Below are positions 11,149 to 48,920 of a DNA stretch of 64,000 bases, one piece after another; position 1 is the stretch's first letter, and every line of letters starts with the position of its first letter. A program made the position numbers and the translations under genes. Under the pieces are notes generated by a model that was not told the origin of the DNA, ran no database searches, and saw only the letters and a list, made by a program, of their open reading frames with translations. Source of the DNA: Pseudomonadota bacterium. GTDB lineage: Bacteria; Pseudomonadota; Gammaproteobacteria; Poriferisulfidales; JAYYZZ01. The stretch spans positions 22,330 through 86,329 of the forward strand of contig JAYYZZ010000004.1 of NCBI GenBank assembly GCA_036687665.1, read 5' to 3'.

Positions 11149-14711
<3,563 letters not shown>

Positions 14712-14726
14712 TTCATTACTACTATT

Positions 14727-18768: not shown

Positions 18769-18778
18769 AAAAGAAATT

Positions 18779-24360: not shown

Positions 24361-25482
24361 GTGATGAGATTTTTGCCGAAAAGATTTGTTTTTCCTTTGT
24401 ATTTGATTTGTGTTGTCACAATTGGTGTTGAATTTTTTACTCAGTTTTTAATTGAAAAGAATGATCAATATTATATCTACCCACCATATTATAAATTCAT
24501 GCAAAAATCTAACCCCGAATTCACCCCTGGTGTTTACACTGATGCACATTTTCGTGCAAATGAACTGGGTATTAGGTCTGAGAGTTACCAAGGGCAAGAC
24601 AATGTTATTTTAATACTAGGCGGCAGTACGGCGATAGATGTAATGCTAGATCAGGAACTTACATGGGCGTACCAATTGCAAAGATTACTTACCAAAGAGA
24701 GTAAGTGGGTTTCAACATGGGTAGGTAATCTTGGCAATAGTGCACGTGCATCTGAAAACCACGTTGATTACATGGAAAAGATTTTTCCATACATGCCAAA
24801 GCCAGATTTTATTTTAGTTCTTTTAGGCGCTAACGATATGCAGCTTGCGCTAAAGTCTAGCTATGGCGAGGGAGAGCTCAATGATCATAATTTATTAAAT
24901 TATAACGTCCACCCGGACAATGATTTTATTTCAAATTTTGGAATATATCGTTTTTACAGACAAATGCATCAATGGTATCTAAGAGATAAATATGCATTTA
25001 TTGGCAACGGTGCGGGGTTCAAGCAATGGAGGGATTGCCGTCAATCTGCACCTGCACATACCCATGTTGACAAGTTGCCTGACTTATCTGAAATGCAGCA
25101 AGTCATGTGGCATAGCCTTGAAAGCATGGAGTATTTATCACGTCAGTATAAAGCGAAAATAATTTTTATAACACAACCTACGTTATATAACACTTCAGTA
25201 GGTGATGCAGAAAAGTCAGTGCTTATGGCTGGTGGAGTAGGGCCAAACCAAGTTTGGTGTAAGGATAAAAAATATTATTCAATAGGAGCGCTTGCCAAAG
25301 CAATGATAGAGTTTAACAATATCACAAGACGCTTTTGCAAAACCAAAGGTCTTGATTGTATAGATCTAGCAAAAAAATTGCCGCCTAAGTTAGATAATTA
25401 TTATGATGAAATGCATTATAGCGAGCTAGGTGCTTTAAAAGTTGCAACAGTCATAGCTCAAGAAATGTCCAAAATGAAATGA
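24361..25482 (+). CDS. membrane-anchored SGNH/GDSL-fold protein (GGS variant), paralog 1
   Basis: N-terminal TM. Block I ILILGGSTAID, block II GNLGNSA, block III LLGANDM, block V YDEMHYS (DxxH). Start is the GTG at 24361 or the ATG at 24364. Confidence 0.65.
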   Translation: MMRFLPKRFVFPLYLICVVTIGVEFFTQFLIEKNDQYYIYPPYYKFMQKSNPEFTPGVYTDAHFRANELGIRSESYQGQDNVILILGGSTAIDVMLDQELTWAYQLQRLLTKESKWVSTWVGNLGNSARASENHVDYMEKIFPYMPKPDFILVLLGANDMQLALKSSYGEGELNDHNLLNYNVHPDNDFISNFGIYRFYRQMHQWYLRDKYAFIGNGAGFKQWRDCRQSAPAHTHVDKLPDLSEMQQVMWHSLESMEYLSRQYKAKIIFITQPTLYNTSVGDAEKSVLMAGGVGPNQVWCKDKKYYSIGALAKAMIEFNNITRRFCKTKGLDCIDLAKKLPPKLDNYYDEMHYSELGALKVATVIAQEMSKMK

Positions 25483-26726
25483 ATACCCTTATATGCAAGA
25501 GTTTAGTATTTTTAAGGACATTGTTTACTATACTTATAGTAACTCTTGTCCTTTTTGTGCTTATCAATTTGTTATCTTTTCATGTAATACAAACATACCC
25601 TGAGCTATTATTAACTGACGCACAAAGAACAAATGAGAATACACGTGCAGTTAGGGAAAAAATGCTACCTGAGCATTTAGCTTTGAAATGGTACGAAATA
25701 GAATCTATTGATGAGGTAAAGGATATTTGGGAGGAGTTTTTTAGCGGGCCTCAAGAGTATGAAGCTTATACACAATACCGTCATAAGCCACTTATGGGTA
25801 AGTATTATTTAGTTACCAAAGAAGGTTACCGTCTTTCTCGTGAGCCCGGACCTTGGCCACCTGACAAAAGTAATTACAATATTTTCTTTTTTGGTGGTTC
25901 AACAGCTTTCCAACCAGGTCCTGCCTGGACATCTGTTGCATCTTATTTGCAAGATATATTAAATGAAAAACAAAAGTTAACTGAGAAAGTGTTTGTATAT
26001 AATTTTGGGCGTTCTGGGTATTTTACAACACAAGAGCAAATTCTTTTCCAAGAGCTGCTCAAGAGCAATTATATACCTGACGCTGTTGTTTTTTTTGATG
26101 GTCTGAATGATTTTTGTTATACAGATGGCAAGCCAGGAGGGTGGACAAATGTTGCTAAGACGTATAACGACAAAATTGAAGCTCAGATAAAAATAGAAAG
26201 AGAATACAATGCAACAATACGTTGGAATTTAATTAAAACCTTTCTAGTTGAACTACCTGCGACAAAGTTAGCAAGAAGTATTGCCGATTATGTTCAGTAT
26301 AAGGAGATAAAATATACTGGAACAACTGTTAACGATGACCCCAAGGCAGCCCCAGATAAAGTGCTAATGACTGTCATACAAAGATATATTCATAATCTCA
26401 GACAAATAGAAGGAATTTCAAAAGAATACAATATACAACCTATTTTTGTTTGGCAGCCAATACCAACGTATAAGTACAATGCTGAAGCACATATGTTTTA
26501 TCCCAATATTATGGGTTGCCATAGAAATTCAATAGTAGGCTACCCTTTAATGGCAAACTACTTAAAATCGCACCCATTAGAGGAAAATTTTATTTGGGCG
26601 GCTGATATGCAAGAAAATATTAATGAACCTTTATATATTGATGCATTTCATTACACAGCACCAATGTCAAAAATGATTGCCAACTACATTACAGACGCAC
26701 TAATCTCTAGGAAATTACTGCAATAA
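25479..26726 (+). CDS. membrane-anchored SGNH/GDSL-fold protein (GGS variant), paralog 2
   Basis: N-terminal TM. Blocks IFFFGGSTAF, YNFGRSGY, FFDGLNDF and IDAFHYT. ATGA overlap with the upstream paralog. Confidence 0.65.
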   Translation: MNTLICKSLVFLRTLFTILIVTLVLFVLINLLSFHVIQTYPELLLTDAQRTNENTRAVREKMLPEHLALKWYEIESIDEVKDIWEEFFSGPQEYEAYTQYRHKPLMGKYYLVTKEGYRLSREPGPWPPDKSNYNIFFFGGSTAFQPGPAWTSVASYLQDILNEKQKLTEKVFVYNFGRSGYFTTQEQILFQELLKSNYIPDAVVFFDGLNDFCYTDGKPGGWTNVAKTYNDKIEAQIKIEREYNATIRWNLIKTFLVELPATKLARSIADYVQYKEIKYTGTTVNDDPKAAPDKVLMTVIQRYIHNLRQIEGISKEYNIQPIFVWQPIPTYKYNAEAHMFYPNIMGCHRNSIVGYPLMANYLKSHPLEENFIWAADMQENINEPLYIDAFHYTAPMSKMIANYITDALISRKLLQ

Positions 26727-27672: not shown

Positions 27673-28614
27673 TTAAATATACTTCTTACAGAAATCTTCT
27701 TTTTGGTCAACAAGTCTTAGCTCGAGACTTTCTCTTCCTGAGGTCATATCGGGTGTTATGTGTGTTCGATGTATTGTCCAGTTGCTAAAGATTGCTATAT
27801 CGCCTTTTTTTACATTTAAAAAATCTCTTTGTTTGTCATCAAACTCTTTGTGTATATTTTTAGGATCATATTTTTCGTATTCTATTTTAACAACACCATC
27901 TGTGACATAGTAGTCTAAGTAAGACTGAGATCTTTCTAACCCCACCTTTATAATTTCGAGACTCGGTGCTTTATATTTTAATCCTGCATTCGAAAAAGGT
28001 ATCCAAATGTTTAATACAAGTTGCGTGGTTGCATGATAAAAAATGTCGCTGTGATACTCAGTAGGCAACCCCCATTCCTCTCCGTCAGCATGTTTATTAC
28101 CTTCTAAAAAGTCTGAAATGCTTACTTGTGGATGCATCTTGCGAGTGTGTGATGCATTTGAGACGCTAAATGAGCAATTAGGAAAAGCGTCGTATAGCAG
28201 TGACCAAAATGCCGGGAATGAGATTAAGTCAAAGTAACTGTTCTTGTAGTCATGTGCATGCCGGAACATACTCTCTGATATTGCATCTTGTGCTAGGAGT
28301 ACTTCGAAGAATCCTTTGTCTGGAATTTCATGAGTAAGTGATAGTTTACTTCTGAGTTTTTCATCATCTAGCACAGCCATATCTATGTCGTGCCAATACT
28401 TACTGGCGTGAGGCTGAAGATATTTTCTGAAATAGTCTATTTTTTCAGAAGAAATAGCTTCTCTGAGTATAACGTAACCGTTTTCTTTAATTATAGAGTC
28501 AAATAATTGATCTTTTGTAGCATCTTTGAAAAGAAGATCGCTTTCTGCTGGAAGATCGCTTTCTGTTGGAAGATCGCTTTCCGCTGTTGGTTTTTTTAAA
28601 AATTTTCTGAACAT
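27673..28614 (-). CDS. PhyH-like Fe(II)/2-oxoglutarate dioxygenase family protein with N-terminal hexapeptide repeats (paralog of 40328-41386)
   Basis: 313 aa. Motifs TEYHSDIFYH (HxD) and SNWTIHRT. N-terminus carries three (A/T)ESDLP repeats. Confidence 0.55.
   Translation of the reverse strand: MFRKFLKKPTAESDLPTESDLPAESDLLFKDATKDQLFDSIIKENGYVILREAISSEKIDYFRKYLQPHASKYWHDIDMAVLDDEKLRSKLSLTHEIPDKGFFEVLLAQDAISESMFRHAHDYKNSYFDLISFPAFWSLLYDAFPNCSFSVSNASHTRKMHPQVSISDFLEGNKHADGEEWGLPTEYHSDIFYHATTQLVLNIWIPFSNAGLKYKAPSLEIIKVGLERSQSYLDYYVTDGVVKIEYEKYDPKNIHKEFDDKQRDFLNVKKGDIAIFSNWTIHRTHITPDMTSGRESLELRLVDQKEDFCKKYI
28533..28586. repeat. 3 x 18-bp in-frame tandem repeat (gaagatcgctttc[tc]g[ct]tg)
   Basis: Read directly: three contiguous 18-nt units differing by single bases. 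They encode AESDLP-TESDLP-AESDLL at the N-terminus of the minus-strand CDS 27673-28614. Confidence 0.9.
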
Positions 28615-28620
28615 GGAAGA

Positions 28621-29949
28621 TTATTTAATTTTTTTAGCAATATGGTTTGCTATTGCTTTCATCAGTATATTATTGCCTTTTTCTGTGTAGTGACAACAAT
28701 CATCAATGAAATTTTGATGGCTTAAATCGCTGAATATTTTTGTTGCATCAAAAAAGTCAACGCCAGCGGCAACCAGATTCTTTTCTTGTTTTAAAAAAGC
28801 ATTATATCCAAAATTTACGGGTTCAATATATTTTTTATAAATATGGTCTTTAGAGCGTGGAACATATTTCCCAGATTTTCTATACCATTGATTAGGTTGC
28901 AGGACATGCAAGTAGTGCATATCGCTTTGAGACTTTGCAATGCTATGCATTAAAACTGAAGAATTTCTCCAAGTCTCTGCAATGTATGTATAAATGTCAT
29001 TTATTTTGTTTGTTTTGCTTTCTTTGTACTTCGCAAGAAATCGGGATAAATTACCTATATCTGGGTTACGTTGTAGTCGGTCTTTAGTGCCTTTATTCTG
29101 ATAGCGGTAGTAATAACTAAAGGTTTTCCTTATGAAGTAACACGCTGCAGTTATACAGTCATTTACTGCAGCTTCCCTGTGATTGCTAGCTTGCAACTGA
29201 TAATAATTATATTCCACACTTTCAGATAACATGGATTTTATGTGATCTGCTTCTATTGCGTTACCCAAGCCCTTCCATGTTTGTGCAGCCGGATAAAGTA
29301 CTTCAATTTTATCCTCGGCATAATTTGTATAACCACTGGCAACCTCATTAAAACCATCAATGTTGATAACAATATCAAATTTTTGTTTTGCCGTAGCATA
29401 GTAGGCAAGAGTCATTAGTTGTTGGGGTTGCTTGAACCCTGACATTGCAAAATTTAAAACCCTTATATTTTTATCGCTAAACTTTTTTATTCTCTTTAAT
29501 TCATTCTGCAATACTTGTGTTTTCATTGCTGTTGTTGCTAAGCCTAATCCTACAGAACCACCAAAAATAGCAACAATAATGTCATCTTTTGCCTTTCTTG
29601 TAATAGGGTAGTCACAGCAATCCGGGTCTTTATTGTAAAATGGAGTGTAATATTGGAAACCGTGGTTGTTGTTTTTGTACATGACCGAGTCTTCATCGTG
29701 TTTTAGGTGTTTAAGGTCTATAACGTCCTCTCTGTCAGGATGCAATGTATACCCTATATAAGGGTGAAACACTGATTGTTCAACGGTGAAAATATGAGGA
29801 TCAATATTAGATTTTGATATCTCTTCTATCTCTCTGGCGTAGAACAGTTCGTTTTCTTTGTAGAAAAAATACCCGACACCTAATGTTTCTAGAAGCACAA
29901 AAGCGATTAGTAGATTGACAGATACTATAAAGATGTTTTTCTTTATCAT
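28621..29949 (-). CDS. membrane-anchored SGNH/GDSL-fold protein (GGS variant), paralog 3
   Basis: 442 aa with N-terminal TM. Blocks VAIFGGSVGLG, LNFAMSGF, INIDGFNEV and DDCCHYTEKGNNILMKAIANHI. Confidence 0.65.
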   Translation of the reverse strand: MIKKNIFIVSVNLLIAFVLLETLGVGYFFYKENELFYAREIEEISKSNIDPHIFTVEQSVFHPYIGYTLHPDREDVIDLKHLKHDEDSVMYKNNNHGFQYYTPFYNKDPDCCDYPITRKAKDDIIVAIFGGSVGLGLATTAMKTQVLQNELKRIKKFSDKNIRVLNFAMSGFKQPQQLMTLAYYATAKQKFDIVINIDGFNEVASGYTNYAEDKIEVLYPAAQTWKGLGNAIEADHIKSMLSESVEYNYYQLQASNHREAAVNDCITAACYFIRKTFSYYYRYQNKGTKDRLQRNPDIGNLSRFLAKYKESKTNKINDIYTYIAETWRNSSVLMHSIAKSQSDMHYLHVLQPNQWYRKSGKYVPRSKDHIYKKYIEPVNFGYNAFLKQEKNLVAAGVDFFDATKIFSDLSHQNFIDDCCHYTEKGNNILMKAIANHIAKKIK

Positions 29950-29962: not shown

Positions 29963-31405
29963 TTAAGATAAAAACTGATCTCCTGTTATCTGATTGAATC
30001 TGAGCACTTTATTGTAATCACTGCATTTTTTCATATTTGTTGCATCAGATTGAGAAAAAGTTATTTCTGTATTGCCAAGCTTGTAGTAATTAAAACCATC
30101 ACTTGGTTGCATAGACCCTATAGTATGGTGCGTTTTTGGTCGGACTTTGTATTCAGTATTATTTAGAAACACTTCTTCAGGAATAATAAATTGCCTTAGC
30201 CATTTAATTACAGTATTTCTTTCTTTAACGTCGTGCAATTTTGTAATGATATTTTGAACTTTGTCATCTAAAATTTCGTTCTCTGGAATCAATAAAACAT
30301 TTTTATCAGTTTTATTTCTAACCCTGCTTGCTATGCCCAATTCTATGAGCATAGCAAGAAGTGTTGCAGCATTATCATTACCTTTGACATATAAATCTGT
30401 CCATAAACTATATATTTCACGCCCTGCTGTTAGATGATTTACATGCATATTTGATTCATGTTCTGCAATCTCCCAATCTTTCTCATTAATATCGGCGTAA
30501 TGTACACGGCCGGGTTGTCTTATCATTAGATCACAAGTTTTATTTGCTTTTTCGAAAAGCGCCCACCATTTCATAAAATTTAACGAATTAAATGGCATGT
30601 TCTCTGTATACCATGGCCTATCTTTTCCGGGTATGGCTAAACTCAACATAAATAAGTCATCGGAATCTGTAATAAAGTGAATTTCATTTTCCTTAAAAGG
30701 CCACGGAAGCATTCTGTGGTCAGTAAGTTCATACAAGTCCCCCCTAAAAAACCATGGATTGTGAGCGGTAAAGGTGGTCAGCACACCTTGATTCTTTATT
30801 GGCCTTATTATTACTTCTGGATGTCTTGGATACCAATTACTATCACGCACAAATGAAGCATAAAGTGCATGTAGATTTTCTAGTCCAATTTTGACCAAAG
30901 TACGCGGCTCAAAGCTTATTACTTTATTTTTTGCTGGATATTTTTTATCTAAATACGGAAGTAACCTGGATGTGTCTGACCTTATATGGTTGTTGAAGAA
31001 TATAGCTGTTTTTCCATTTTTAGCAAGGTCTGCTAGATGTTTGAATGAACCGTCAGACCATAGAACATCGGGGGGTAGAAATAAGCAATAACTCTTATTA
31101 AGCGCAGACTGATCTATTGCGTATTGCCAAACTTCATGGTGTGTAGCGAATGGCGTCTCAAGTTGCGCTGGGTCAAGAGTTATAAATTCAACTGTACAAT
31201 ATTCTAGCAGTTTATTGAAAAATTCATTTTCAGATATTATTTTCTGATCTGGTCCTGTAGCAAAAATAAAAAATATTGTCTCAAAAGTCTTGGAGAATTC
31301 TGGGAAGTTATTCGGTGATAAAAGTGTTCTCAAATGGTAGTTTAAGAAGACATTCATGTGCCATTCTCCCCATACAGTTAGAACCATGTCGCATTTCATT
31401 TTCAT
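29963..31405 (-). CDS. uncharacterised ~480 aa protein, paralog A (possible GT-A-like N-terminal half, degenerate FAS1-like C-terminus)
   Basis: Shares VLTVWGEWH / LFLPPDVLWSDGSF / DSDDLFMLSLA with 32550-34001 (VIVAWGDWH / NLWPDVIWPDGAM / NEDCFILSIA). No signal peptide or TM seen. Confidence 0.35.
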   Translation of the reverse strand: MKMKCDMVLTVWGEWHMNVFLNYHLRTLLSPNNFPEFSKTFETIFFIFATGPDQKIISENEFFNKLLEYCTVEFITLDPAQLETPFATHHEVWQYAIDQSALNKSYCLFLPPDVLWSDGSFKHLADLAKNGKTAIFFNNHIRSDTSRLLPYLDKKYPAKNKVISFEPRTLVKIGLENLHALYASFVRDSNWYPRHPEVIIRPIKNQGVLTTFTAHNPWFFRGDLYELTDHRMLPWPFKENEIHFITDSDDLFMLSLAIPGKDRPWYTENMPFNSLNFMKWWALFEKANKTCDLMIRQPGRVHYADINEKDWEIAEHESNMHVNHLTAGREIYSLWTDLYVKGNDNAATLLAMLIELGIASRVRNKTDKNVLLIPENEILDDKVQNIITKLHDVKERNTVIKWLRQFIIPEEVFLNNTEYKVRPKTHHTIGSMQPSDGFNYYKLGNTEITFSQSDATNMKKCSDYNKVLRFNQITGDQFLS

Positions 31406-31406
31406 G

Positions 31407-32543
31407 TTATAACCTTAGGCCTAGGATATTCGCTCTTCTTTGCAATTGGTTAAATAAATCGGAGATGTTTTCCGCTTTTATAATCATATGTACATCAAGC
31501 TTTTTATATAATCGGCTTATAATTGTTGATTTACCTTTGATGGCGATCGCTGAAGTTGAGTGCTGAATATCTGGCTTGAATCGAGTTAACACTTTAAATA
31601 ATGTTCCTGTAAAAGTAGCTGCAATTCCGGCAGTTGCAGAAAACAACGGGAACAATGTAGCTCCCTGGGGTGTTTTTTTCAAAAAGAATCTGCTTAGAAA
31701 GTACGAGAAAGCATATATGTGATCTTTATACTGAATCACATAATAATGTACATCAAATGCAATTATTGTATAAGACTGTACAGTTACTTTTTTTGACAGT
31801 TGCCACCAATCTCCTCTTTGGAATATTAAAGCCTGGAGTGATGCATTTGCAAACATTTCAGAATCACCTTTTTTCTTTGCAATGCTTGCTTGGCATTGCC
31901 ACAATTGTTGTGGATTTTGGACCGACATCGCATTTGTTGATGTTTGGGCAAACGTAGCTAAACTTTTATCTTGCATATCCGCATCACCAGCAAGCAGCTT
32001 TTGATTCCATAACTGATTTAATATCCATTTTATATGATCTACTTTTGTATTTTCTGCATATGGATATTTCTGTAATAACTCCTTGCCCAGAGTATCCTGA
32101 TATTTAGCAATTAAAAAACTGTTATTTAGTTTTATGGCGCTTGAGTTTATAAGATCTGAAATATCATCAATACTTACTGTTTCTTTATTTATATCTATCC
32201 AATCGTCTATTAGAAGAAGCCTAAGTGAAGCAGCTTCGTGTTCTTTCATATTTAATTTTTCTATTGCATTTGCAATCCAATCACCGTCGGTAATTTTTTC
32301 TGCTTGTTTGTTTTTATAGGGCCTTAAAGTATTAAGTGTACCTGTCGCCCACCCCATTTCTTTTTCAAATTTTTTTAGGGAAATATAATCTCTTCTAATA
32401 ATTCTTGATAGTTCTACAAATTTTATTATAGTTTTGGTATCTTTTTCATTTTCAATATCAAATTTTGATAACGCATCAACGCAGGCACTTATATTGCCTC
32501 TTAGCAAATATTTTTCAGCTTTAGAAACTTCTATAATATTCAT
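31407..32543 (-). CDS. hypothetical protein (no recognisable domain)
   Basis: 378-aa intact ORF packed 1 nt and 6 nt from its operon neighbours. Hydrophobic patch ATLFPLFSATAGIAATFTGTLF near the C-terminus. Confidence 0.5.
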   Translation of the reverse strand: MNIIEVSKAEKYLLRGNISACVDALSKFDIENEKDTKTIIKFVELSRIIRRDYISLKKFEKEMGWATGTLNTLRPYKNKQAEKITDGDWIANAIEKLNMKEHEAASLRLLLIDDWIDINKETVSIDDISDLINSSAIKLNNSFLIAKYQDTLGKELLQKYPYAENTKVDHIKWILNQLWNQKLLAGDADMQDKSLATFAQTSTNAMSVQNPQQLWQCQASIAKKKGDSEMFANASLQALIFQRGDWWQLSKKVTVQSYTIIAFDVHYYVIQYKDHIYAFSYFLSRFFLKKTPQGATLFPLFSATAGIAATFTGTLFKVLTRFKPDIQHSTSAIAIKGKSTIISRLYKKLDVHMIIKAENISDLFNQLQRRANILGLRL

Positions 32544-32549
32544 TGTAAA

Positions 32550-34001
32550 TTATATATTCATTAGTAGACTATCAACATATATGATCTGATACTTTCCTAC
32601 CATAGAGTGAGATAATATTTTTGCGGATATTTCGCCATCAGATAACACAGATCTGGTTTTGTATTTACCTTCTTCCGATATTCCAAATTTTATTAGGTCA
32701 AATTTGTTGCCCTTTATATTTTCAAAGTTAGCAGGTGAATTACTTTCGCTGCCAAATAAAACACCTTTTTTGACGTGTGAAATAAATAGTTCTTCTGATT
32801 TATCATTATTATCTATAGCAAATAAGCGCAATAGTTTATCTTGGTTTATCTTTTTCAGTGCTGAATCAGTTGGAATAAAAAAGGATAAGTTGTCTTGGTA
32901 ACTGACTAGTTTTGGTATGTCCAGAGCGTTCATTAACAACCCAAATATCCCTAGCATCATTTTGCATTGTGGGTTTTTTTGTATTTCTTGAAATACACGA
33001 TATATGCCAAGCCAGTTTTCATATCCCTTCAACCAGATTTTCACTTCATTTTCTTTTCTTTCCCAGAGTTCTTTTGTCGGTTCTTTTTCATATAGCTTTA
33101 CTATTCTTCTGCCAAGGTATTCATTCAAATATGATTCATTTGCTGGATGTAAAGACCACCTAGCCAGAAAAGATTTTGAAACAGAAAAATCTTTGATTAA
33201 GTAGCCCCAATCCTTAGCAAGCGGTGCAATGCTCAAAATAAAACAGTCTTCGTTACTATCGCTAATATGAATATCCTCAGTGGTTAAGTTGGTAATTAAA
33301 AAGCAGTCATTGAGATCGACAAACGCAGGGTCATAGGCAATTATTTCTCTGCCAGTTTCAAACAAAAGAAAGCCTTCGTCTTCTACTGGCCAGATATGGT
33401 CTAGCGCAGGCCTTGCGTTGTTAACTTTATCCATAGCTGCAGCTGATTGTTGTTGTAAATGCTGTTTAGCAAAAGATATTGCTTCATAAGGATTTATGCT
33501 GATTATATTGTCGCTTTTTTTAAAAGCATTGATGTCATTAGCTATTGATTCTTTTGCGACACGGATATGGGGCGGGCATAAAGAAGCTTTTTTTCCTTCC
33601 AGAAGCGGTTTGCATTGATTCATCATGGCTCCATCAGGCCAAATCACGTCGGGCCATAAGTTAAAAATAAGATTGCCTGCATTGAAGGCATCCTTTCTTG
33701 CTTGATGCCAAGCTTCCATTTGATATGTTGATATTAGCTCGCCAGCACCAGGCGCAGCATTTATAACGACTTTGCCATAAGATCTTAATTGTTGCATGCA
33801 TCGCAAGGCCTTTATACTGTCCACATCGTTGATGTGTGTAAGAAAGACAAACTTCAGGGAAAATAGTTGCGCGAGCGCTGGTAAATTGTTGTCACTCAGC
33901 GCAGATGGGAACATGAAATCATTCATAACTGAGATATGCCAATCTCCCCATGCAACTATGACAAGATCTAGGTTTCGTTTTTTTCCTTTATTAACTGACA
34001 T
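32550..34001 (-). CDS. uncharacterised ~483 aa protein, paralog B (FAS1/fasciclin-like C-terminal ~130 aa)
   Basis: ATG at 34001 preferred over the GTG at 34007; it overlaps the upstream stop by 11 nt. C-terminus LSFFIPTDSALKKI ... LFISHVKKG ... GKYQIIYVDSLLM resembles the FAS1 H1/H2/YH pattern. Confidence 0.4.
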   Translation of the reverse strand: MSVNKGKKRNLDLVIVAWGDWHISVMNDFMFPSALSDNNLPALAQLFSLKFVFLTHINDVDSIKALRCMQQLRSYGKVVINAAPGAGELISTYQMEAWHQARKDAFNAGNLIFNLWPDVIWPDGAMMNQCKPLLEGKKASLCPPHIRVAKESIANDINAFKKSDNIISINPYEAISFAKQHLQQQSAAAMDKVNNARPALDHIWPVEDEGFLLFETGREIIAYDPAFVDLNDCFLITNLTTEDIHISDSNEDCFILSIAPLAKDWGYLIKDFSVSKSFLARWSLHPANESYLNEYLGRRIVKLYEKEPTKELWERKENEVKIWLKGYENWLGIYRVFQEIQKNPQCKMMLGIFGLLMNALDIPKLVSYQDNLSFFIPTDSALKKINQDKLLRLFAIDNNDKSEELFISHVKKGVLFGSESNSPANFENIKGNKFDLIKFGISEEGKYKTRSVLSDGEISAKILSHSMVGKYQIIYVDSLLMNI

Positions 34002-35256
34002 AATCACTTAAGCTTACATGTTCTTTTATTTTTTCCATCAAGTTTTCTATGTTTTGATCTAAATTAGATTCATTTGAAAACATAGCATCTTTATTTTCTC
34101 TAGATTTAATTTCACTTTCTGAGTGCCAGTGTATAAAAGCAAGAAACTCATATGGAACTATTGTGAGTCCTGGGTCAAAGTAGTGAGAAAAATCTAGAGA
34201 ATGTTCAGAAAGTTTAAGTGCTTCTTTTATGTAGCCATATTTACGCAGAGCATTAATAACTTCATTTCTGTGTTCGCCTAAAAAATGCTTTAACACTTGA
34301 GCAGTTTTTAGATAATATTTTCCTGCATCTTGGCTACCATTTTTTTCCAAAATCTTTGCAATGTTGAAGCAGGCATGGCCTGAATACTCAATATTCATAC
34401 GCGCAGCTAATTTGAAACAGTCAATAGATAACTCATTTTTGCCTAGTTCATTTAATAAATATCCAGTGTTATACCAGGAGATTGGGTTGTATGGAGTGTT
34501 GTCCAAAGACATAAAAAAACAATAAAGTGTATAGGTGTGCGGGTTACATAGCTTATTTTTATGTTTAGGAATTAACAATGAATAGTAAGCAATATTTTCT
34601 TTATTAAGTTTAGATTCTGCCAAGTAAGAATCCATTGTTTCTTTTATACGAAGTAGTTTCATGGCTGTCATTGCCTGCATGAAATACTGGATTCCAACGG
34701 TTTGCTCAAAGCTTAATTTCTGTTTTTCAAGTCGAGCGAAAAGTTTTTCTGAATTTAAACCGCCAAATGCCCCATCTTGATAAGGGTCTTCTTTCCTCAT
34801 CTCTGTAAATCTTGCAACAACATCGTATCTATTAAGAGTCTTAAATATATCTGTTGAATCTAGATAGTTTGATTCTGCGTGTTTCGTGCCCCAAAGAATC
34901 TCTGCAAAATGTATATCAAGACCCATAATTCTCTTTATCTCTTTATTTTCATGAGTCTGGTTTATCTCATACCCAACTTTATTTAAAAAATTATTAAGTA
35001 GTTCCCTTATTGACTGTCGAGGAGGTTCTTCTCCAACCCAGTCCTCGTGCCGTGAACCTTCATCAGGTGTTAATGTGTGCTCTGGTTTTCTCCGCACCAT
35101 TCTTTTTAATTTTTTTATTACTAGTGTGCGTAAAGCCTCTTCTTCCCAAGGGCTGATTCTTTTCCAAATTAAACGAGCGAGGTTTAGCAACGTAATTTCC
35201 TTCAATAAGTACTTGTATATTGAACTCGAACAACAGTATATGTAAACTGTTGACAT
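33991..35256 (-). CDS. hypothetical protein with TPR-like helical repeats
   Basis: 421 aa and first gene of the minus-strand run. Helical-repeat-like stretch NTGYLLNELGKNELSIDCFKLAARMNIEYSGHACFNIAKILEKNGSQDAGKYYLKTAQVL. True start uncertain. Confidence 0.45.
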   Translation of the reverse strand: MSTVYIYCCSSSIYKYLLKEITLLNLARLIWKRISPWEEEALRTLVIKKLKRMVRRKPEHTLTPDEGSRHEDWVGEEPPRQSIRELLNNFLNKVGYEINQTHENKEIKRIMGLDIHFAEILWGTKHAESNYLDSTDIFKTLNRYDVVARFTEMRKEDPYQDGAFGGLNSEKLFARLEKQKLSFEQTVGIQYFMQAMTAMKLLRIKETMDSYLAESKLNKENIAYYSLLIPKHKNKLCNPHTYTLYCFFMSLDNTPYNPISWYNTGYLLNELGKNELSIDCFKLAARMNIEYSGHACFNIAKILEKNGSQDAGKYYLKTAQVLKHFLGEHRNEVINALRKYGYIKEALKLSEHSLDFSHYFDPGLTIVPYEFLAFIHWHSESEIKSRENKDAMFSNESNLDQNIENLMEKIKEHVSLSDYVS

Positions 35257-35296: not shown

Positions 35297-35449
35297 ATGC
35301 TGTCTTTTTTCAAAGAGTTTTTGTTATTTCTCATACAAAGACGCAAGATCTGGTTAATACCACTTTTCCTTGCGATGGCACTTGTTGGTAGTTTTATTGT
35401 TCTCACTGAAGGTACAGCTATCGCACCTTTTATTTACACTGTATTTTAA
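35297..35449 (+). CDS. second DUF5989 (SxtK-like) small membrane protein; not in the ORF track
   Basis: My own translation: MLSFFKEFLLFLIQRRKIWLIPLFLAMALVGSFIVLTEGTAIAPFIYTVF (50 aa). Same RRK.WL.P...G.AIAPFIYT.F signature as 20001-20150. The 5' end of the ORF-track entry 35370-36470 overlaps it in another frame. Confidence 0.65.
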   Translation: MLSFFKEFLLFLIQRRKIWLIPLFLAMALVGSFIVLTEGTAIAPFIYTVF

Positions 35450-35498
35450 AAATAGAGACATACCTTTGCATTCGCGAACACATTCATATTTATTCACG

Positions 35499-36470
35499 AT
35501 GGGTGCAATGTTTTTAGTTTTTGTGCTCATCATTTTTTTTGTAGAAACAATTTCTAGGACAATACTTAACACAGGCATGCAATATGATCTAGAAATGTGG
35601 AAGTACGCAAAGTATGGTAAGCAGGTAGCTATGAATAAAGAAATTGGGCATGTTCACAAAAATAATTCTACGTTTCATGCAATGGGAGTTGATGTAAATA
35701 TTAATTCTATGGGTCACCGCGATCACGAATTATCAAACCCCAAGAAAAGAAATGAATTACGTCTAATTATGGTGGGTGATTCTATTACTTTTGGTTGGGG
35801 GGTACCGCAAGACCAGACCGTATCTGCTAGAATGGAGAAAATATTAAATACAGGAAATAAAAAATTTATAAATGTTGTCAACACAGGAATCGGAAATACA
35901 AATACATCGATGCAAGTGGAGTTTTTCATTGAACATGCTGAACAGTTAGAACCTGATTACGTTGTATTAAACTATTTTATAAATGATGCTGAAAAAACAC
36001 CCGCATATAAGCCTTTGAATTTTTTGAGTAGGTATTCATACGGTTATATTTACATGAACGGGCGCTGGGATACTTTCAAAAGGATGCTGCAACAGAAAAA
36101 AGACTGGAAACAATATTATTTAGATTTGTATAACAGCGAAGCTGAAGGTTGGCTAGAGACGCAAAAAGCTATAATAAAATTAAAATCCTATTGTGCAGAG
36201 CTTGACATACCACTTTTAATTGTTAACTATCCGGAAATGCGAGAATTTGAACCATACCCTTTTAAGCTTATAACAACAAAAATAGGAAAGATCGCACAAA
36301 CTTTAGATATTTCTTTTCTAGATTTATTGCCATCAGTTTCTCATATAGACCCAGAGGAGCTTTGGGTAACCGAACCTGACCCACATCCTAACGCAAAAGC
36401 TGATGATTATTTTGCAAAAGCAATTACGGAACACCTTGAATCAGCCTGGGACTATAATAAGCGGTTTTAG
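35499..36470 (+). CDS. membrane-anchored canonical GDSL/SGNH hydrolase
   Basis: Start moved to the ATG at 35499 (MGAMFLVFVLIIFF, TM). Block I LIMVGDSITFGWG, block II NTGIGNTN, block III NYFINDA, C-terminal EPDPHPNAKADDYFAKAI. Confidence 0.75.
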   Translation: MGAMFLVFVLIIFFVETISRTILNTGMQYDLEMWKYAKYGKQVAMNKEIGHVHKNNSTFHAMGVDVNINSMGHRDHELSNPKKRNELRLIMVGDSITFGWGVPQDQTVSARMEKILNTGNKKFINVVNTGIGNTNTSMQVEFFIEHAEQLEPDYVVLNYFINDAEKTPAYKPLNFLSRYSYGYIYMNGRWDTFKRMLQQKKDWKQYYLDLYNSEAEGWLETQKAIIKLKSYCAELDIPLLIVNYPEMREFEPYPFKLITTKIGKIAQTLDISFLDLLPSVSHIDPEELWVTEPDPHPNAKADDYFAKAITEHLESAWDYNKRF

Positions 36471-36485
36471 AGTAGACTAAGAAAA

Positions 36486-37910
36486 ATGAACATAGATAAA
36501 AAGAAAATAATCTTTAGCATGCTTACAGTTGTGATATTAGGTTTTACAGCAGGCGTGTTCTCAGAAATAATATATCGAGGCTACTTATCATATGAGATAT
36601 GGTCTAAGGCTGCATTTGGATATGGCGTAGATAAAGGCGAGTATCTAGTTGCTTTTGGATACCCTCCACACGTAATTTATGACAAAGAAGCAGGTTATCA
36701 CTACAATTCTGACCCTTACTATAGTATTAATCATCATGTTGATGAGAAATATACATGTTCTGTTTCTGATAATTTTGGCAAACATACGCTCCGCAAAGAT
36801 ATCTCAGACTATGAGTCTGCTGATTATAAAATACTATTGCTTGGCTCGTCTTATGCTGGCTACCGGTTTCCTGATGGATCAGGAACGCTAATTAACCACA
36901 CAACTAAAAGTCTAGAATACGAGTATCAAGGTACATTTGGCGGAATTAATTTGTCGCGCGGTTCAACAGGTATGCTGGAAATGGTAGATCTTGCAGTAAG
37001 CGTCATACCTAAAGAATTTCAACCTGATCTCGTGCTTTTTACTCTTAATACATCAGATGCGGCACGGCCAAGGTGGTGGCCAATTTACCGAGATGTCGGT
37101 GAAGGCATGTATCGCTGGTATCAAAGCAGAGAAGCAGAGCCTAAATCTTTTAAAAGAGATTCGGTAATTACTCAATCAGCTGTTTTGTCGGCAGAGATTG
37201 ATCAGGAGTGGTGCGACTATATAAACGATCTTTTTCAAACTAAAGGGATTGAGGAAGTACAAAAAGATCCTTTAGCGCAAAAAATTGTAAGGCATATAAG
37301 CGCTGCAAAAGCTATCCAAAGGCGCCCTCATTTTGATGTTAATCCTTTTACGGAACCTGTTTGTTTTATTTGTGACAAAATTAAACACGGCAGTGCATAT
37401 TATTCAATTAGTGTTTTTAATCAAAATAATCCTATCAGCCAAGTCAAGCCAGACAAATTTAAAAATGATCAGTTATTTATACAGAACTTTGCTAAGTTCA
37501 AAGAATTAGGTATCCCATATTTTATTATGCACTTCCCAAGCTATGCTGAGTTTAAATACAATATAAGAGCTGCGTATGGACATTATGGAATGAGCGCACA
37601 AGAAAATGAAGATATATATAACATTCTGCAAGAATTGACTGGAGCTGAAGTTGTCTGGTTAAAAGATTATATAAGTTTAGGAGAATTACAGCCCCACGAT
37701 TTTGTAAGTCACGAAAAAGATTGGCACCCACAACTTATGGGTTCAGAGCTACTAGCAAAAGCTATGCATGATGTAATTGCAGAGTATTTGGAAAAAAATA
37801 ATATTGCACAAAAGACAGGAAACAAATTTTCAGGTCGCTATACTCAATGCACGGAAACAAGTGTTACACCAACCCCAGGTAGGTCTGGTAAAGAAATTTC
37901 TTGCCCTTGA
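36486..37910 (+). CDS. membrane-anchored divergent SGNH-like protein
   Basis: 474 aa with N-terminal TM. Motifs ILLLGSSYAG and NLSRGSTG. C-terminal HEKDWHPQLMGSELLAKAMHDVI resembles block V plus a helix. Weaker match than the other five. Confidence 0.4.
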   Translation: MNIDKKKIIFSMLTVVILGFTAGVFSEIIYRGYLSYEIWSKAAFGYGVDKGEYLVAFGYPPHVIYDKEAGYHYNSDPYYSINHHVDEKYTCSVSDNFGKHTLRKDISDYESADYKILLLGSSYAGYRFPDGSGTLINHTTKSLEYEYQGTFGGINLSRGSTGMLEMVDLAVSVIPKEFQPDLVLFTLNTSDAARPRWWPIYRDVGEGMYRWYQSREAEPKSFKRDSVITQSAVLSAEIDQEWCDYINDLFQTKGIEEVQKDPLAQKIVRHISAAKAIQRRPHFDVNPFTEPVCFICDKIKHGSAYYSISVFNQNNPISQVKPDKFKNDQLFIQNFAKFKELGIPYFIMHFPSYAEFKYNIRAAYGHYGMSAQENEDIYNILQELTGAEVVWLKDYISLGELQPHDFVSHEKDWHPQLMGSELLAKAMHDVIAEYLEKNNIAQKTGNKFSGRYTQCTETSVTPTPGRSGKEISCP

Positions 37911-39069: not shown

Positions 39070-40323
39070 CTACAAAATGTCTTTTGCCATTCGTTTTGCT
39101 ATCAGTTTATTAGCCTCTGGGGTGTAGTGCACTACATCAAAATAAATAACACTATCTAAATTAGAGAATAGCGAAGTAATATCAAAGAAGCGGGTATTGT
39201 TAGACCTTATATATTTTTTTTCAAGATTCGCATATAAAATTTCATAACTCTTATATACAGATATTACTTTTTCTAAATATTTTTGTCTGTTGCGAAAAAT
39301 TTCTCCACCGTCACTCAAAACAACAAAACCATAAAATTCGTCAAGTAGTTCTTGTTCTTCTGCAGGCATATATTTTCTTTTGTACTCTGCAAATGGCTGT
39401 AAGTACGATATAAATTTGATGTTGTTATTGTTGCAATAGCTAGCTATCGCATCAATATTTTTCTCAAAAATAAAACTTTTTTGCGTATTTGATTTTATTA
39501 AATGTTCTGACTGCATTAACCAATGATGTTTTCTGTACGTATCTTGTCTTGTTATTAATTTTTTCTTCTGGATAAATCCAAAATGCTTAAGCAAGTAGTA
39601 CGAGTAGGTAAATATGTATGGAGGATTGTCATATTTAGTTTCTATATTGTTTATAAAATCAAAAAATTTATAATCCATATATCCCCAATTTATCATTTGC
39701 CCATTTATGTTATTTCTTTCTTTTTCGAATACATTGCTTACCGCATCATTCCAGCCATCTAGTGTGATTATAATGTCAGGTTTTAGATATATGATTTCAG
39801 CAAAGAATTTACGTAACCCATAAAATGACCAGCCTCCAGAAATACCAAAATTAAGCACTTCATATTCTTCGTTGCCAGAAGAATTATTTAGGGTTTTCTC
39901 AAGCTGTGCAGAGATGGTGTCTTGATTCCCAGATTCCAGACGGTTACCCGCCAGACTGCTACCACCGAGCATGAAGATTCTTGTCACACCCTTTTTCTTA
40001 TCGGGGAAAAATTCTGGAGCAGTTCCTTCCTTATCATTGCTTATAAACCCGAATTTATTGATAGTGAGGCTGCTTAATTTAGAATTTGGTTCAAGCCTCG
40101 TAGTAGTAAGCGGATCGTAAATACCAAAGGTCGTTCTTGAAGCATTTGCGGGGTGTAACTTTATCATTCCTTGAGAAGCACTCAAGAAATTCATTTGGTT
40201 TTTTGTTGCATGCTTATAAGTTAAATAAGAAAAGCAAAATACTTCCGCAAGTAAAAGTGTGAAAACTGCAATTAAAAAATATTGGTCAATTTTTGATAGA
40301 TATTTTCTTTGACCTATGTTCAT
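39070..40323 (-). CDS. membrane-anchored SGNH/GDSL-fold protein (GGS variant), paralog 4
   Basis: 417 aa with N-terminal TM. Blocks IFMLGGSSLAG, LNFGISGG, ITLDGWNDA and FDVVHYTPEANKLIAKRMAKDI. Confidence 0.65.
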   Translation of the reverse strand: MNIGQRKYLSKIDQYFLIAVFTLLLAEVFCFSYLTYKHATKNQMNFLSASQGMIKLHPANASRTTFGIYDPLTTTRLEPNSKLSSLTINKFGFISNDKEGTAPEFFPDKKKGVTRIFMLGGSSLAGNRLESGNQDTISAQLEKTLNNSSGNEEYEVLNFGISGGWSFYGLRKFFAEIIYLKPDIIITLDGWNDAVSNVFEKERNNINGQMINWGYMDYKFFDFINNIETKYDNPPYIFTYSYYLLKHFGFIQKKKLITRQDTYRKHHWLMQSEHLIKSNTQKSFIFEKNIDAIASYCNNNNIKFISYLQPFAEYKRKYMPAEEQELLDEFYGFVVLSDGGEIFRNRQKYLEKVISVYKSYEILYANLEKKYIRSNNTRFFDITSLFSNLDSVIYFDVVHYTPEANKLIAKRMAKDIL

Positions 40324-40327: not shown

Positions 40328-41386
40328 TTATAGATATTCAGTTAGCCCTAGTGCTGTTGGAATTTTATCGTTCGTGTCTACCATGCGTGCTTCAATGCTC
40401 GTTCTTGGGTGTATTGCATTTTCTGGAATGCCTGTGCGATGAATTGTCCAGTTCGTTAAAACCATGACGTCCCCAGGCTTGAGACTAGGCTGGATTATTT
40501 TTTCTGCGGGAAAGTTAGATTCTATCTCTGCCGATTCAAACTTTTCGTCAAGAAATCTGGGCAATTGGTCTTTTACATCATAATCATAATAGTCCCGACT
40601 TTCTTTGATGCCCATTGCTACCACATCGAGCGTTGTTGCCTGGTATTTAGGCCCTGCTGGAGTTATGGGTATCCATGTGTTCAATACAAATAAAGCTGTA
40701 GGCGATGCGTGATAATACATATCGCAGTGATAATCGAGATAACCAGCATATCTTTCTTTTCTTTCTTCTTGTTTTCCTGTTGCATCGCATTTAGCCCAAA
40801 GACGTTTTGGATGCATTGTGCGCGTGTGTGCTTGTGTATGAAGTCTGAAAGCCGAATATGGAAATGCATGTTTTATAACGGATTGCATTTTTGTAATAGA
40901 CAGCAAATCGAGAAAAGAATGTTTATTATCATGTGCAATTTCAAACATCCGGTTGTTTAGGCTACCTTGCTCTAACCAGGCTTGGAAGAAGTTTTCACCC
41001 GGATCGGTCTTCTCTTGACTTAAATTTATCCTAAATTGCGGGTCATCGAATTTCTGTGGGTCGATGTTTTGCCAGTAATCTTGTGCCTGTGGCAATAACA
41101 CGTCCCGGTAATTGGTAACTTTTGATTCTGGGATGAGGTTTCTGATAATCAGGTAACCATTATTTATTACTACTGAATCAAAAAGATGCTCAGGTGTTAA
41201 TTGTTCTGCCGATATATCAGCTGTTACATGTTTATGGGAACGCACACCAGATAATAGGGTTAGGTTTTTGTATTTTATCCTGTTCTTTGTGCCCGTGAAT
41301 CGGACAATAAAGCTATAGATAAGTTTGCAATAAAAAGAAGGTAGGTATTGCAAAAGCATCTTGAGTTTTGATATTAAACGTAACAT
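40328..41386 (-). CDS. PhyH-like Fe(II)/2-oxoglutarate dioxygenase family protein (paralog of 27673-28614)
   Basis: 352 aa. Motifs LDYHCDMYYH (HxD) and TNWTIHRT. Shares NGY.I.R, LN.WIP, G.KY.A..L blocks with 27673-28614. Confidence 0.55.
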   Translation of the reverse strand: MLRLISKLKMLLQYLPSFYCKLIYSFIVRFTGTKNRIKYKNLTLLSGVRSHKHVTADISAEQLTPEHLFDSVVINNGYLIIRNLIPESKVTNYRDVLLPQAQDYWQNIDPQKFDDPQFRINLSQEKTDPGENFFQAWLEQGSLNNRMFEIAHDNKHSFLDLLSITKMQSVIKHAFPYSAFRLHTQAHTRTMHPKRLWAKCDATGKQEERKERYAGYLDYHCDMYYHASPTALFVLNTWIPITPAGPKYQATTLDVVAMGIKESRDYYDYDVKDQLPRFLDEKFESAEIESNFPAEKIIQPSLKPGDVMVLTNWTIHRTGIPENAIHPRTSIEARMVDTNDKIPTALGLTEYL

Positions 41387-42127: not shown

Positions 42128-42907
42128 TTATAACACTCCTTCTGGCGCACCATCGTCTTGATATGCAATATAAGTTCTTCCCCACCAGCCTACATCCATG
42201 TGGCGTAAAAATTTGAATTTACTATATTGTTGAAACTCTAGAAATGCTCTTCCAATGCCTTTGGTTGGAATGTTGTTATAGCCACAAAACAAATCATCTA
42301 GATAAATTACTGTGCCTTCTTGTATGAGAGGTTCTAAAAACTTAAAGACTGGCACTGCTGACTCATACAGATCACAATCTACTGTTGCCAGCGCAACTAC
42401 TTCTCCAGCATCAAGCAATGATGTTTGCAAATCATCAGTTAAGCTGTCGTCATAAAACCCTTTGATGGTTCTTACCCGATCTGTATATATCCCATGTTTT
42501 TGAATATGTGCTAGAAAATCTTCTTCAGTGGTAGTCAAAACACCTGGTGTATGCCAGAGGGATTTGGTTGGCGTTGATGTCTCAGGTAAGCCCTCAAAAC
42601 TATCATAAGCAAAAAAATTCATCTCTTGCATATTGTGCCGATGAGCTTCAGTGAGAGCCATTCTAAAAGTTCGTGCTCTATGACAGCCAAATTCGTGATA
42701 GCCACCCTTAATTTCATTGTCATTCAACATATCAAAGGTTTTTACAAAAAATTTGTATTTCTCAATCTGCCTGTTGTTCTGGTTGTATTCGACTTCATCA
42801 GCATGTTCCCAGCTTTTCATATCGTCCGCATTATCAAGAGTAACCCATGGTTCCTCACCTAGTGGATGTATGATGCTTGGTGTCCGTTTTTTTTCTTTAT
42901 TTGACAT
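42128..42907 (-). CDS. TylF/MycF/NovP-family sugar O-methyltransferase
   Basis: 259 aa. Motifs YHEFGCHRARTF, YDSFEGLPE and ATVDCDLYES. Confidence 0.75.
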   Translation of the reverse strand: MSNKEKKRTPSIIHPLGEEPWVTLDNADDMKSWEHADEVEYNQNNRQIEKYKFFVKTFDMLNDNEIKGGYHEFGCHRARTFRMALTEAHRHNMQEMNFFAYDSFEGLPETSTPTKSLWHTPGVLTTTEEDFLAHIQKHGIYTDRVRTIKGFYDDSLTDDLQTSLLDAGEVVALATVDCDLYESAVPVFKFLEPLIQEGTVIYLDDLFCGYNNIPTKGIGRAFLEFQQYSKFKFLRHMDVGWWGRTYIAYQDDGAPEGVL

Positions 42908-42912
42908 GTGTT

Positions 42913-44097: not shown

Positions 44098-44098
44098 A

Positions 44099-44977: not shown

Positions 44978-44985
44978 CTATCTTT

Positions 44986-45429: not shown

Positions 45430-45434
45430 TATTC

Positions 45435-48165: not shown

Positions 48166-48179
48166 ACTTATAACTAAAA

Positions 48180-48890: not shown

Positions 48891-48920
48891 ATATATTGGA
48901 AGACTATTCAGTTAAGGAAA

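Follow-up and report, generated by a model that had tools for sequence, protein, structure and literature searches.

Four tightly packed minus-strand genes at positions 29963-35256 of a 64,000-nt stretch of contig JAYYZZ010000004.1 (positions 22,330 to 86,329 of the contig, assembly GCA_036687665.1, a likely proteobacterial metagenome-assembled genome (MAG); this whole stretch is called the window below) encode proteins of 421, 485, 378 and 480 aa, none of which could be assigned in a preliminary description made from the sequence alone. According to our analysis, it is somewhat probable that the two largest of these proteins, of 480 and 485 aa, belong to an uncatalogued family of cytoplasmic GT-A-like glycosyltransferases and work with a tetratricopeptide repeat (TPR) scaffold in an ABC-transporter-dependent O-polysaccharide pathway. 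We infer glycosyl transfer by the two proteins, its donor, polymerisation rather than single addition, and the roles of the FAS1 and TPR parts. The fold class, FAS1 and TPR are already known, and what is new is the sequence family, the cytoplasmic fusion of an enzyme-like domain to FAS1, the pairing with a TPR protein and the tie to the 'sporadic carbohydrate cluster'.

The four open reading frames (ORFs) were all found where the preliminary description had placed them. The gene for the 421-aa TPR-like protein (33991-35256) is followed by those for the 485-aa GT-A-like/FAS1 protein (paralog 1, 32550-34007; 485 aa from a GTG start, 483 aa if the ATG that gene callers choose is taken), a 378-aa lineage-specific orphan (31407-32543) and the 480-aa GT-A-like/degenerate-FAS1 protein (paralog 2, 29963-31405). 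The stop of the 421-aa gene overlaps the start of the 485-aa gene by 11 nt (with the ATG start), and the next two junctions are gaps of 6 nt and 1 nt. The proposed paralogy was confirmed by BLASTP, which aligned 319 aa of the two ~480-aa proteins at 24% identity (E 5e-19). Among the motifs quoted for the pair, WGDWH/WGEWH, WPDVIWPDG/PPDVLWSDG and a shared D.F.LS.A were recovered, while the first D of 'D..D.F.LS.A' was not shared in position. In Pfam and NCBIfam scans, the four proteins gave nothing but a Fasciclin match in the 485-aa tail and sub-threshold TPR matches in the 421-aa protein. Signal peptides and transmembrane (TM) helices were not found in any of the four: the highest Kyte-Doolittle mean over 19 residues was 1.54, compared to 2.29 for the TM anchor encoded by the next gene (28621-29949), in agreement with what had been said of the 480- and 485-aa proteins.

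To describe the N-terminal half, which had been said to resemble GT-A-like transferases loosely, we searched an AlphaFold 2 (AF2) model of the 485-aa protein with Foldseek. Residues 11-306 (33090-33977, minus strand) form an alpha/beta domain, a predicted nucleotide-sugar transferase module, in which the order is beta1 (11-18), a helix, beta2 (49-58), helices, beta3 (78-85), a helix and beta4 (113-116). This N-domain holds WGDWH (residues 20-24), N41-x-P43 and, directly behind beta4, W118-P119-D120. Every non-FAS1 match at E <= 0.001 had the nucleotide-diphospho-sugar transferase fold. The GT-A matches, at probability 1.00, were K4CP (2e-4, the best outside FAS1), WrtF (2.4e-4), AvpGT, SpsA, COLGALT1 and PcManGT, with BoGT6a just past the cutoff (1.2e-3); SpsA superposed over 147 columns with an rmsd of 3.9 A. 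These results support, on the predicted model, a nucleotide-diphospho-sugar transferase (GT-A-like) fold class for the N-domain. The structure search assigned the 485-aa protein to no unrelated known family with confidence and returned GT-A and FAS1 similarity.

The alignment of relatives pointed to the same residues. N41 and D120 were invariant across 92 diverse relatives, and W20, G21, P43, T57, P119, G138, R149, P186, G212, S259 and W315 were conserved in at least 90% of them; both window paralogs retain all residues invariant in a closer set of relatives. From this alignment and its place after beta4 in the model, Asp120 (codon GAC, 33648-33650, minus strand) is the invariant Asp at the DxD-equivalent position, as had been suspected of the PPD/WPD motif. 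The 480-aa protein carries WGEWH, P-P-D113 (codon 31067-31069) and DSDDLF. In sugar-phosphate nucleotidyltransferases, beta1 is followed by an NTP-binding signature of the G-x-G-x-R type; no such loop was present after beta1 of the N-domain, where the loop is WG[DE]WH and holds neither Arg nor Lys. The N-domain is connected to the tail by a long helical hairpin (residues 312-361, 32925-33074, minus strand; AF2 helices 312-343 and 346-361), whose W315 is nearly invariant among relatives.

The C-terminal ~115 aa of the 485-aa protein are a genuine FAS1 domain (residues 368-481, 32565-32906, minus strand). Pfam PF02469 matched with 24.2 bits against a gathering cutoff of 22 (E 4.2e-5), FAS1 domains were the only PDB matches of the 10-sequence family profile, and the 92-sequence profile matched TGFBIp (6e-45), the single-domain Rhodobacter protein 1w7d (2.6e-21), cytoplasmic CupS (1.2e-13) and, at E 1e-9, FAS1 proteins deposited as astaxanthin-binding. 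In addition, Foldseek placed the modelled tail on FAS1-4 of TGFBIp (2ltb) with a TM-score of 0.72 and an rmsd of 4.0 A, so that the FAS1 fold suggested in the preliminary description was found by sequence and by model. The weaker resemblance noted for the 480-aa protein also stood. Pfam gave no Fasciclin match for this protein alone, and its tail (residues 345-428, 30122-30373) scored 18.1 bits against a tail profile built with itself left out, compared to about 0 or less for 200 shuffles; judged by this profile, it is a degenerate FAS1 domain that has kept the helical half. Classical FAS1 proteins serve in adhesion, are secreted or lie at the cell surface and often have several repeats. Because they have neither signal peptide nor TM segment, the N-domain/FAS1 proteins were judged to be cytoplasmic, and intracellular FAS1 proteins (CupS and the phycobilisome linker LRC6) were among the profile matches. 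Our literature searches found no FAS1-glycosyltransferase fusion.

The 421-aa protein had been described as an orphan with TPR-like helices; the TPR-like part of this held, and the protein turned out to belong to a conserved partner class. Its residues 250-354 gave sub-threshold matches to Pfam TPR_8, TPR_12, TPR_17 and TPR_1 (TPR_8 19.6 bits against a cutoff of 25.7), and BLASTP aligned it (25% identity, E 3e-10) with a TPR protein encoded directly upstream of the 485-aa ortholog in L005/L006 (L numbers denote the loci fetched for comparison). In L005/L006, the gene order is an ortholog of the 442-aa SGNH gene described below, the homologous TPR gene and then the 485-aa ortholog (33% identity), with two further family paralogs in the locus. 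Positional counterparts in other loci exceeded the Pfam cutoffs (TPR_19, 28.8 against 25; TPR_2, 29.4 against 27; TPR_14, 28 against 23.5). Besides the window and L005/L006, a TPR protein adjoins a family member in 8 of 10 further loci, and the fusion proteins P0072, P0078 and P0109 have the order TPR-N-domain-FAS1, which mirrors the gene order of the window. Furthermore, when the partners from L007, L009, L014-L016, L018, L019, L025, L026 and L030 were aligned, they shared a DIxxYxGxFYxV beta-hairpin motif after the repeats and then an Arg-rich basic C-terminal segment. This shared sequence pattern suggests that the partners are not just any TPR proteins and make up a family of their own.

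We then surveyed how far the WG[ED]WH family extends. A word-indexed search returned only 4-5 relatives per paralog, and the GTDB representative genomes held one locus, in a Dependentiae MAG. A HMMER scan of 1.84 billion cluster representatives gave 8190 matches at E <= 1e-3 and 899 at E <= 1e-30; the figure of ~900 counts clusters at 50% identity at the stricter threshold, and the lower tiers include FAS1-only proteins. By these profile counts, the N-domain family is not rare. Relatives are named 'hypothetical protein' (for example, Bradyrhizobium WP_291699262.1) or, in IMG, 'uncharacterized surface protein with fasciclin (FAS1) repeats', the latter wrongly. Most of the relatives collected (144/172) combine the N-domain with FAS1; 15 have two tandem N-domains and lack FAS1, one has three, and 11 consist of the N-domain alone. 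Longer relatives contain TPR repeats (8/34) or are fused to GT41, GT2, FkbM or another methyltransferase, or a sulfotransferase, a pattern typical of multi-module polysaccharide synthases. Two or three family paralogs occur per locus in the window, L005, L018, L025 and L038. In L038 (9857-11676), two tandem genes encode the N-domain only (303 and 304 aa), which indicates that FAS1 is dispensable in some lineages; the L038 cluster and the window have GLF-like, epimerase, transketolase and HldE-like genes in common. A distant match was also seen on plasmid pDCAR1 of Solidesulfovibrio carbinolicus (L041, 106235-108235), where a 666-aa 'hypothetical protein' aligned weakly with the N-domain (28% identity over 35% of the query). 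The island around it contains pseB/pseC and genes for radical SAM enzymes, methyltransferases, a TIGR04372 glycosyltransferase and a Maf-like (MptE-like) protein.

The survey also showed that the family recurs in sugar-pathway loci. Orthologs of the sugar-pathway genes of the window stand beside family members in at least 12 of about 16 independent loci, a sample that was drawn with a narrower seed alignment and is hence biased to closer relatives. The identities were 47-69% for the GLF-like protein, 43-55% for TIGR04324, 50-61% for the TylF and Methyltransf_3 methyltransferases and 65-68% for the carbamoyltransferase; TIGR04323, Wzm/Wzt, a short-chain dehydrogenase/reductase (SDR) and a split transketolase were shared as well. 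The genes at 42128-46262 in particular have orthologs (42-69%) beside family members in L005, L007, L009, L014, L015, L016, L019 and L030. The N-domain/FAS1 genes are only ~25-29% identical across loci, the pathway genes being far better conserved.

In the window, the four genes lie within a ~48-kb glycan locus between purA and queA. Two divergent GT4 genes (13572-15899, strand given as '.'; Pfam Glycos_transf_1, E 5e-30 and 7e-33) are the only conventionally recognisable glycosyltransferase genes of this locus in Pfam scans. A Wzm/Wzt-type ABC-2 exporter (17941-19558, plus strand; Pfam ABC2_membrane and ABC_tran) has orthologs that adjoin family members in L014 and L016, and its Wzt is short (278 aa), with no obvious carbohydrate-binding extension. 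No Pfam match of the Wzx, Wzy or WaaL type was found in the genes scanned, at 13.5-61.6 kb of the window. The locus thus combines Wzm/Wzt with an absence of Wzx and Wzy among the scanned genes, as in an ABC-dependent O-polysaccharide pathway. An ABC exporter is present, but only the two GT4 genes are recognisable; together with their TPR partner, the two paralogs are the leading candidates for the chain-building enzymes that the locus seems to lack. A connection to the Coxiella O-antigen was also considered, and the review consulted for it has nothing on such proteins. At 42128-46262 (minus strand), Pfam and NCBIfam identified a TylF-like methyltransferase, a divergent GLF-like flavoenzyme, an SDR epimerase/reductase, TIGR04323 and the 2OG-Fe(II) oxygenase TIGR04324. 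The last two, proteins of 156 aa (44986-45456) and 275 aa (45435-46262) on the minus strand, had no Pfam match and scored 137.5 bits for NCBIfam TIGR04323 (LIC12192 family) and 320 bits for TIGR04324; in seven other loci, their orthologs are found alongside N-domain/FAS1 genes. No paper mentioning this 'sporadic carbohydrate cluster' was found in our literature searches. The GLF-like flavoenzyme (42913-44097, minus strand) reached 91 bits compared to an equivalog cutoff of 304 for UDP-galactopyranose mutase and is 65-69% identical across otherwise very divergent loci; probably it interconverts the pyranose and furanose forms of another nucleotide sugar.

The locus further contains asnB, a carbamoyltransferase, a fatty-acid-hydroxylase-like gene, about six SGNH/GDSL-like genes, two PhyH-like genes, several methyltransferases, genes for SIS, transaldolase-like and HldE-like kinase/cytidylyltransferase proteins, dehydrogenases and a split transketolase. 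Old paralog pairs were found for NanM-like methyltransferases (22022-23164/37930-39057, 36%), PhyH-like proteins (27673-28614/40328-41386, 36%) and the GT4 proteins (13572-14711/14727-15899, 27%). Together with the 480/485 pair, these sequence similarities suggest an ancient duplication of a transferase-plus-tailoring module.

On these grounds, we propose the following course of synthesis. The 480- and 485-aa proteins would be membrane-peripheral, each made up of a predicted ~300-aa GT-A-like nucleotide-sugar-binding catalytic module, a predicted helical hairpin and a predicted FAS1 domain, and the translationally coupled TPR protein would serve as a scaffold for both. At the cytoplasmic side of the inner membrane, each of the two enzymes would add a sugar or linkage of its own to a glycan linked to undecaprenyl diphosphate, with donors that likely include the products of the neighbouring GLF-like mutase and the TIGR04323/TIGR04324 pathway. 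The chain may then be methylated, carbamoylated or hydroxylated and exported via Wzm/Wzt, and the exported glycan may be O-acylated or trimmed by TM-anchored SGNH proteins.

Several results weigh against a glycosyltransferase in this pathway. The AF2 model of the 485-aa protein (pLDDT 80.2, pTM 0.76) rests on a 10-sequence alignment, and good superposition is confined to ~150 residues, the first, nucleotide-binding half. Nucleotidyltransferases matched about as strongly as GT-A enzymes (3e-4 to 1e-3; IspD, 4kt7, 2.8e-4; KdsB, 3pol, 4.3e-4). The canonical DxD is missing, since W118-P119-D120 in the 485-aa protein and P-P-D113 in the 480-aa protein have only the last Asp at that position. Residues 1-340 matched nothing in Pfam or NCBIfam at E <= 1, and PDB sequence searches with the 10- and 92-sequence profiles hit the FAS1 part only and not the N-domain; by Pfam, NCBIfam and PDB profiles, the N-domain sequence family is outside the described families. 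When the 92-sequence N-domain profile was compared by hhalign, probabilities stayed below 1% for the E. coli GT2 proteins WcaA, WcaE and WbbI and below 3% for RfbA, GalF and CpsB, the best, insignificant match being the nucleotidyltransferase GalF; the controls (GT-B, SDR and acetyltransferase) were also all below 3%, so that these comparisons do not discriminate. In addition, dN/dS against L011, a relative ~90% identical to the window, was 0.68, 0.43, 0.62 and 0.50 for the four genes and 0.09-0.27 for SGNH and methyltransferase neighbours, estimates that are noisy because dS was small (0.02-0.12). Such raised values may reflect relaxed constraint; they fit either this or the rapid divergence usual for serotype-determining transferases. 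Finally, the pDCAR1 island looks like a flagellin-glycosylation locus and hints at protein glycosylation in some lineages.

The structural matches to IspD and KdsB, which score like the GT-A matches, the good alignment of the nucleotide-binding half only, the absent DxD and the insignificant GalF match would all suit an N-domain that shares the fold and is no glycosyltransferase, such as a sugar nucleotidyltransferase, a phosphosugar or phospho-alcohol transferase or a non-catalytic nucleotide-sugar-binding scaffold. We hold this to be quite improbable: the WG[DE]WH loop does not contain the Arg or Lys of G-x-G-x-R, two to three paralogs per locus and tandem modules are unlike the organisation of activating enzymes, and an HldE-like kinase/cytidylyltransferase is already in the locus. 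Similarly low is the chance that the TPR and N-domain/FAS1 proteins form a protein-glycosylating system in which the TPR protein binds a flagellin, pilin or adhesin and the enzyme attaches an unusual sugar to it. The TPR partner is conserved and sometimes fused, substrate selection by TPR is known in OGT and FlmG, one relative is fused to GT41, and the distant relative on pDCAR1 sits among pseB/pseC, Maf-like and TIGR04372 genes. However, the window and the L014 and L016 loci contain GT4 genes besides Wzm/Wzt exporters, genes for flagella or pilins are absent from the surroundings, the Solidesulfovibrio match is weak, and TPR domains also scaffold ABC-dependent capsule polymerases.

The evidence from fold, motif and context would be the same if each of the two paralogs attached only single residues, as decoration or chain terminator, to a backbone made by the GT4 pair or by enzymes encoded elsewhere. 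The locus is rich in tailoring enzymes (methyltransferases, a carbamoyltransferase, PhyH-like and SGNH proteins), the duplicated tailoring pairs (methyltransferases 22022/37930, PhyH 27673/40328) suggest decoration modules, and recognition of a terminator is neither required nor excluded with a Wzt that shows no obvious carbohydrate-binding extension. On the other side, relatives with two or three modules in tandem look like polymerases, the locus has only two other recognisable glycosyltransferases and the best GT-A structural match is the polymerase K4CP. None of these points is decisive, and we consider decoration unlikely but deserving of more weight than the two explanations above. The idea behind the IMG label, that the proteins are FAS1 adhesins, either secreted or on the surface, is very improbable. 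They do have a genuine FAS1 domain, and IMG uses an adhesin-type name for several relatives, but the topology contradicts the idea: signal peptides and TM segments were not found, and the enzyme-like beta1 begins at residue 11. Moreover, each protein has a single FAS1 rather than repeats, relatives lacking FAS1 exist, intracellular FAS1 proteins are known (CupS and LRC6) and the context is one of cytoplasmic sugar metabolism. The reading as GT-A-like glycosyltransferases of O-polysaccharide synthesis is the one we favour.

The 378-aa protein had been called unrecognisable, and it stayed so. Only near-identical copies were found among 5.8 billion proteins, and no homologs were detected in six-frame translations of the fetched loci outside the window lineage (L005-L010, L013-L040) or among the 172 collected family proteins; the protein is intact and 93% identical in L011. 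Its AF2 model, built from two sequences, had a pLDDT of 44.9 and was unusable for a fold search. In this poor model, the first ~245 aa are predicted to be helical, and a short beta-rich, hydrophobic C-part follows. The matching position, the helical N-part and a hairpin, 'YTIIAFDVHYYVIQ', that resembles the DIxxYxGxFYxV of the TPR partners raised the idea of a diverged TPR-type partner of the 480-aa enzyme. We rejected it as unsupported: hhalign against the TPR partners was co-linear but not significant (P 0.13), and an HMM of the partner motif ranked the protein no higher than other window proteins. Perhaps it acts, in this lineage only, as an accessory protein or as a partner for the 480-aa enzyme.

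The four packed genes are real, but the preliminary description of a four-gene operon fell short, as the packed co-directional run comprises six genes. After a 13-nt gap, the 480-aa gene is followed by the gene for a 442-aa TM-anchored SGNH/AlgX-like protein (28621-29949, minus strand; weak Pfam Lipase_GDSL and ALGX matches, N-terminal TM segment) and, after a further 6 nt, by that for a 313-aa PhyH-like 2OG-oxygenase-type protein (27673-28614, minus strand; Pfam PhyH E 4e-4), the last gene of the run. An ortholog of the 442-aa protein (38% identity) is encoded directly upstream of the TPR gene in L005. The transcription unit is probably six genes long and includes the 442-aa SGNH-like gene; a promoter and terminator scan gave signals at or below the expectation from shuffles and is uninformative. 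The N-terminus of the 313-aa protein (28500-28614) has a tandem peptide repeat, TAESDLP-TESDLP-AESDLL, ahead of the oxygenase domain, and the protein is paralogous to that encoded at 40328-41386 (E 2e-61). Decay in related strains was not seen: all four genes are intact in L011 (5209-10502 there). dS along the region varies sixfold against L011 (0.018-0.12), which hints at recombination mosaicism within the locus. The window sequence is identical to contig CAZYVO010000004.1 of MAG GCA_964651065.1.

Housekeeping genes flank the glycan locus on both sides, with pyrG, kdsA, eno, ispD, ispF, miaA, hfq, hflX, hflK, hflC, hisZ-like and purA on one flank and queA and tgt on the other. At 6481-13579, the order is miaA-hfq (7495-7728)-hflX-hflK-hflC-hisZ-like-purA, and the order miaA-hfq-hflXKC-hisZ-purA is typical of Proteobacteria, which points to a proteobacterial host of ~37% GC. 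The best PDB matches of the enolase came from a mixture of phyla, and the gene order was the only pointer to a proteobacterium. The SGNH/GDSL-like proteins are encoded at 24361-26726, 28621-29949, 35370-37910 and 39070-40323; the 442-aa one, the sole one measured, is TM-anchored, and a 366-aa one matches the Leptospira esterase families LA_2486 and LA_2490. Their abundance suggests heavy O-acyl modification or editing of the glycan. The SIS isomerase, transaldolase-like, HldE-like and split transketolase genes (47566-52560 and 56366-58104) resemble a route to a heptose or to some chain-extended or branched sugar. Both halves of the transketolase share 65% identity with genes that adjoin family members in L016, L019 and L038.

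A more specific joint reading can be put forward, tentatively and with considerable doubt. The N-domain would be a new CAZy-level family that, with its obligate TPR partner, forms the polymerase module for the sugar of the 'sporadic carbohydrate cluster' and the GLF-like enzyme; the cytoplasmic FAS1 would have been recruited for holding either the polyprenyl carrier or the glycan as it grows, and the 378-aa orphan would be a fast-evolving second partner of the 480-aa enzyme. The suggestion of a polyprenyl carrier is linked to the family-profile match with FAS1 proteins that bind astaxanthin, an isoprenoid pigment. If the glycosyltransferase reading is true, several hundred 'hypothetical' or mislabelled clusters would become a new glycosyltransferase family, whose carriers include the MAG of the window, Bradyrhizobium, Dependentiae and many metagenomes. 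It would supply the missing transferases for the widespread sugar pathway of TIGR04323/TIGR04324 and the GLF-like mutase, give a first clear intracellular, enzyme-linked role of FAS1 in bacteria and add the pairing of TPR with GT-A to the known organisations of ABC-dependent polysaccharide synthases. The practical gain would be a better annotation of O-antigen and capsule loci that seem short of glycosyltransferases.

Compared to known systems, the window has both genes of the TIGR04323/TIGR04324 'sporadic carbohydrate cluster', as pathway neighbours and not as homologs of the four proteins. With classical FAS1 proteins (TGFBIp, periostin, Rhodobacter Fdp 1w7d and MPT70), the ~115-aa tail shares Pfam family, profile and predicted fold, whereas here FAS1 is a single copy located C-terminal to a cytoplasmic enzyme-like domain. 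WrtF, a GT2 O-polysaccharide fucosyltransferase of Rhizobium tropici, has G-A-D instead of DxD and is metal-independent (PMC12595478). It also resembles the window proteins in belonging to a Wzm/Wzt O-polysaccharide locus and in joining an N-terminal GT-A module to a C-terminal helical extension (PDB 9omh-9omn; PMC12595478). In both cases the DxD is degenerate, its first Asp being replaced (G-A-D compared to W/P-P-D in the window proteins), and a single Asp at this position has a precedent because WrtF works with G-A-D. In contrast to the window proteins, which have no glycosyltransferase Pfam match, WrtF is a recognisable GT2 of demonstrated activity, and it has neither FAS1 nor a described TPR partner. 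In the E. coli K4 chondroitin polymerase K4CP (PDB 2z86), two GT-A modules add alternating sugars, which is comparable to the two paralogs and the tandem relatives. K4CP has canonical DxD motifs. It has neither FAS1 nor TPR, and the window modules, which are encoded in separate genes, have no detectable sequence similarity to it. The TPR domains of OGT (GT41) and of the flagellin glycosyltransferase FlmG serve to select protein substrates, and those of ABC-dependent (group-2) capsule polymerases act as scaffolds; the catalytic domains of all these enzymes are GT-B or TagF-like. The window system shares with OGT, FlmG and the TPR-containing group-2 capsule polymerases the coupling of TPR to a catalytic module, genetically or by fusion; its catalytic module, however, is GT-A-like, and its TPR part is usually a separate protein with a hairpin motif and a basic C-terminus.

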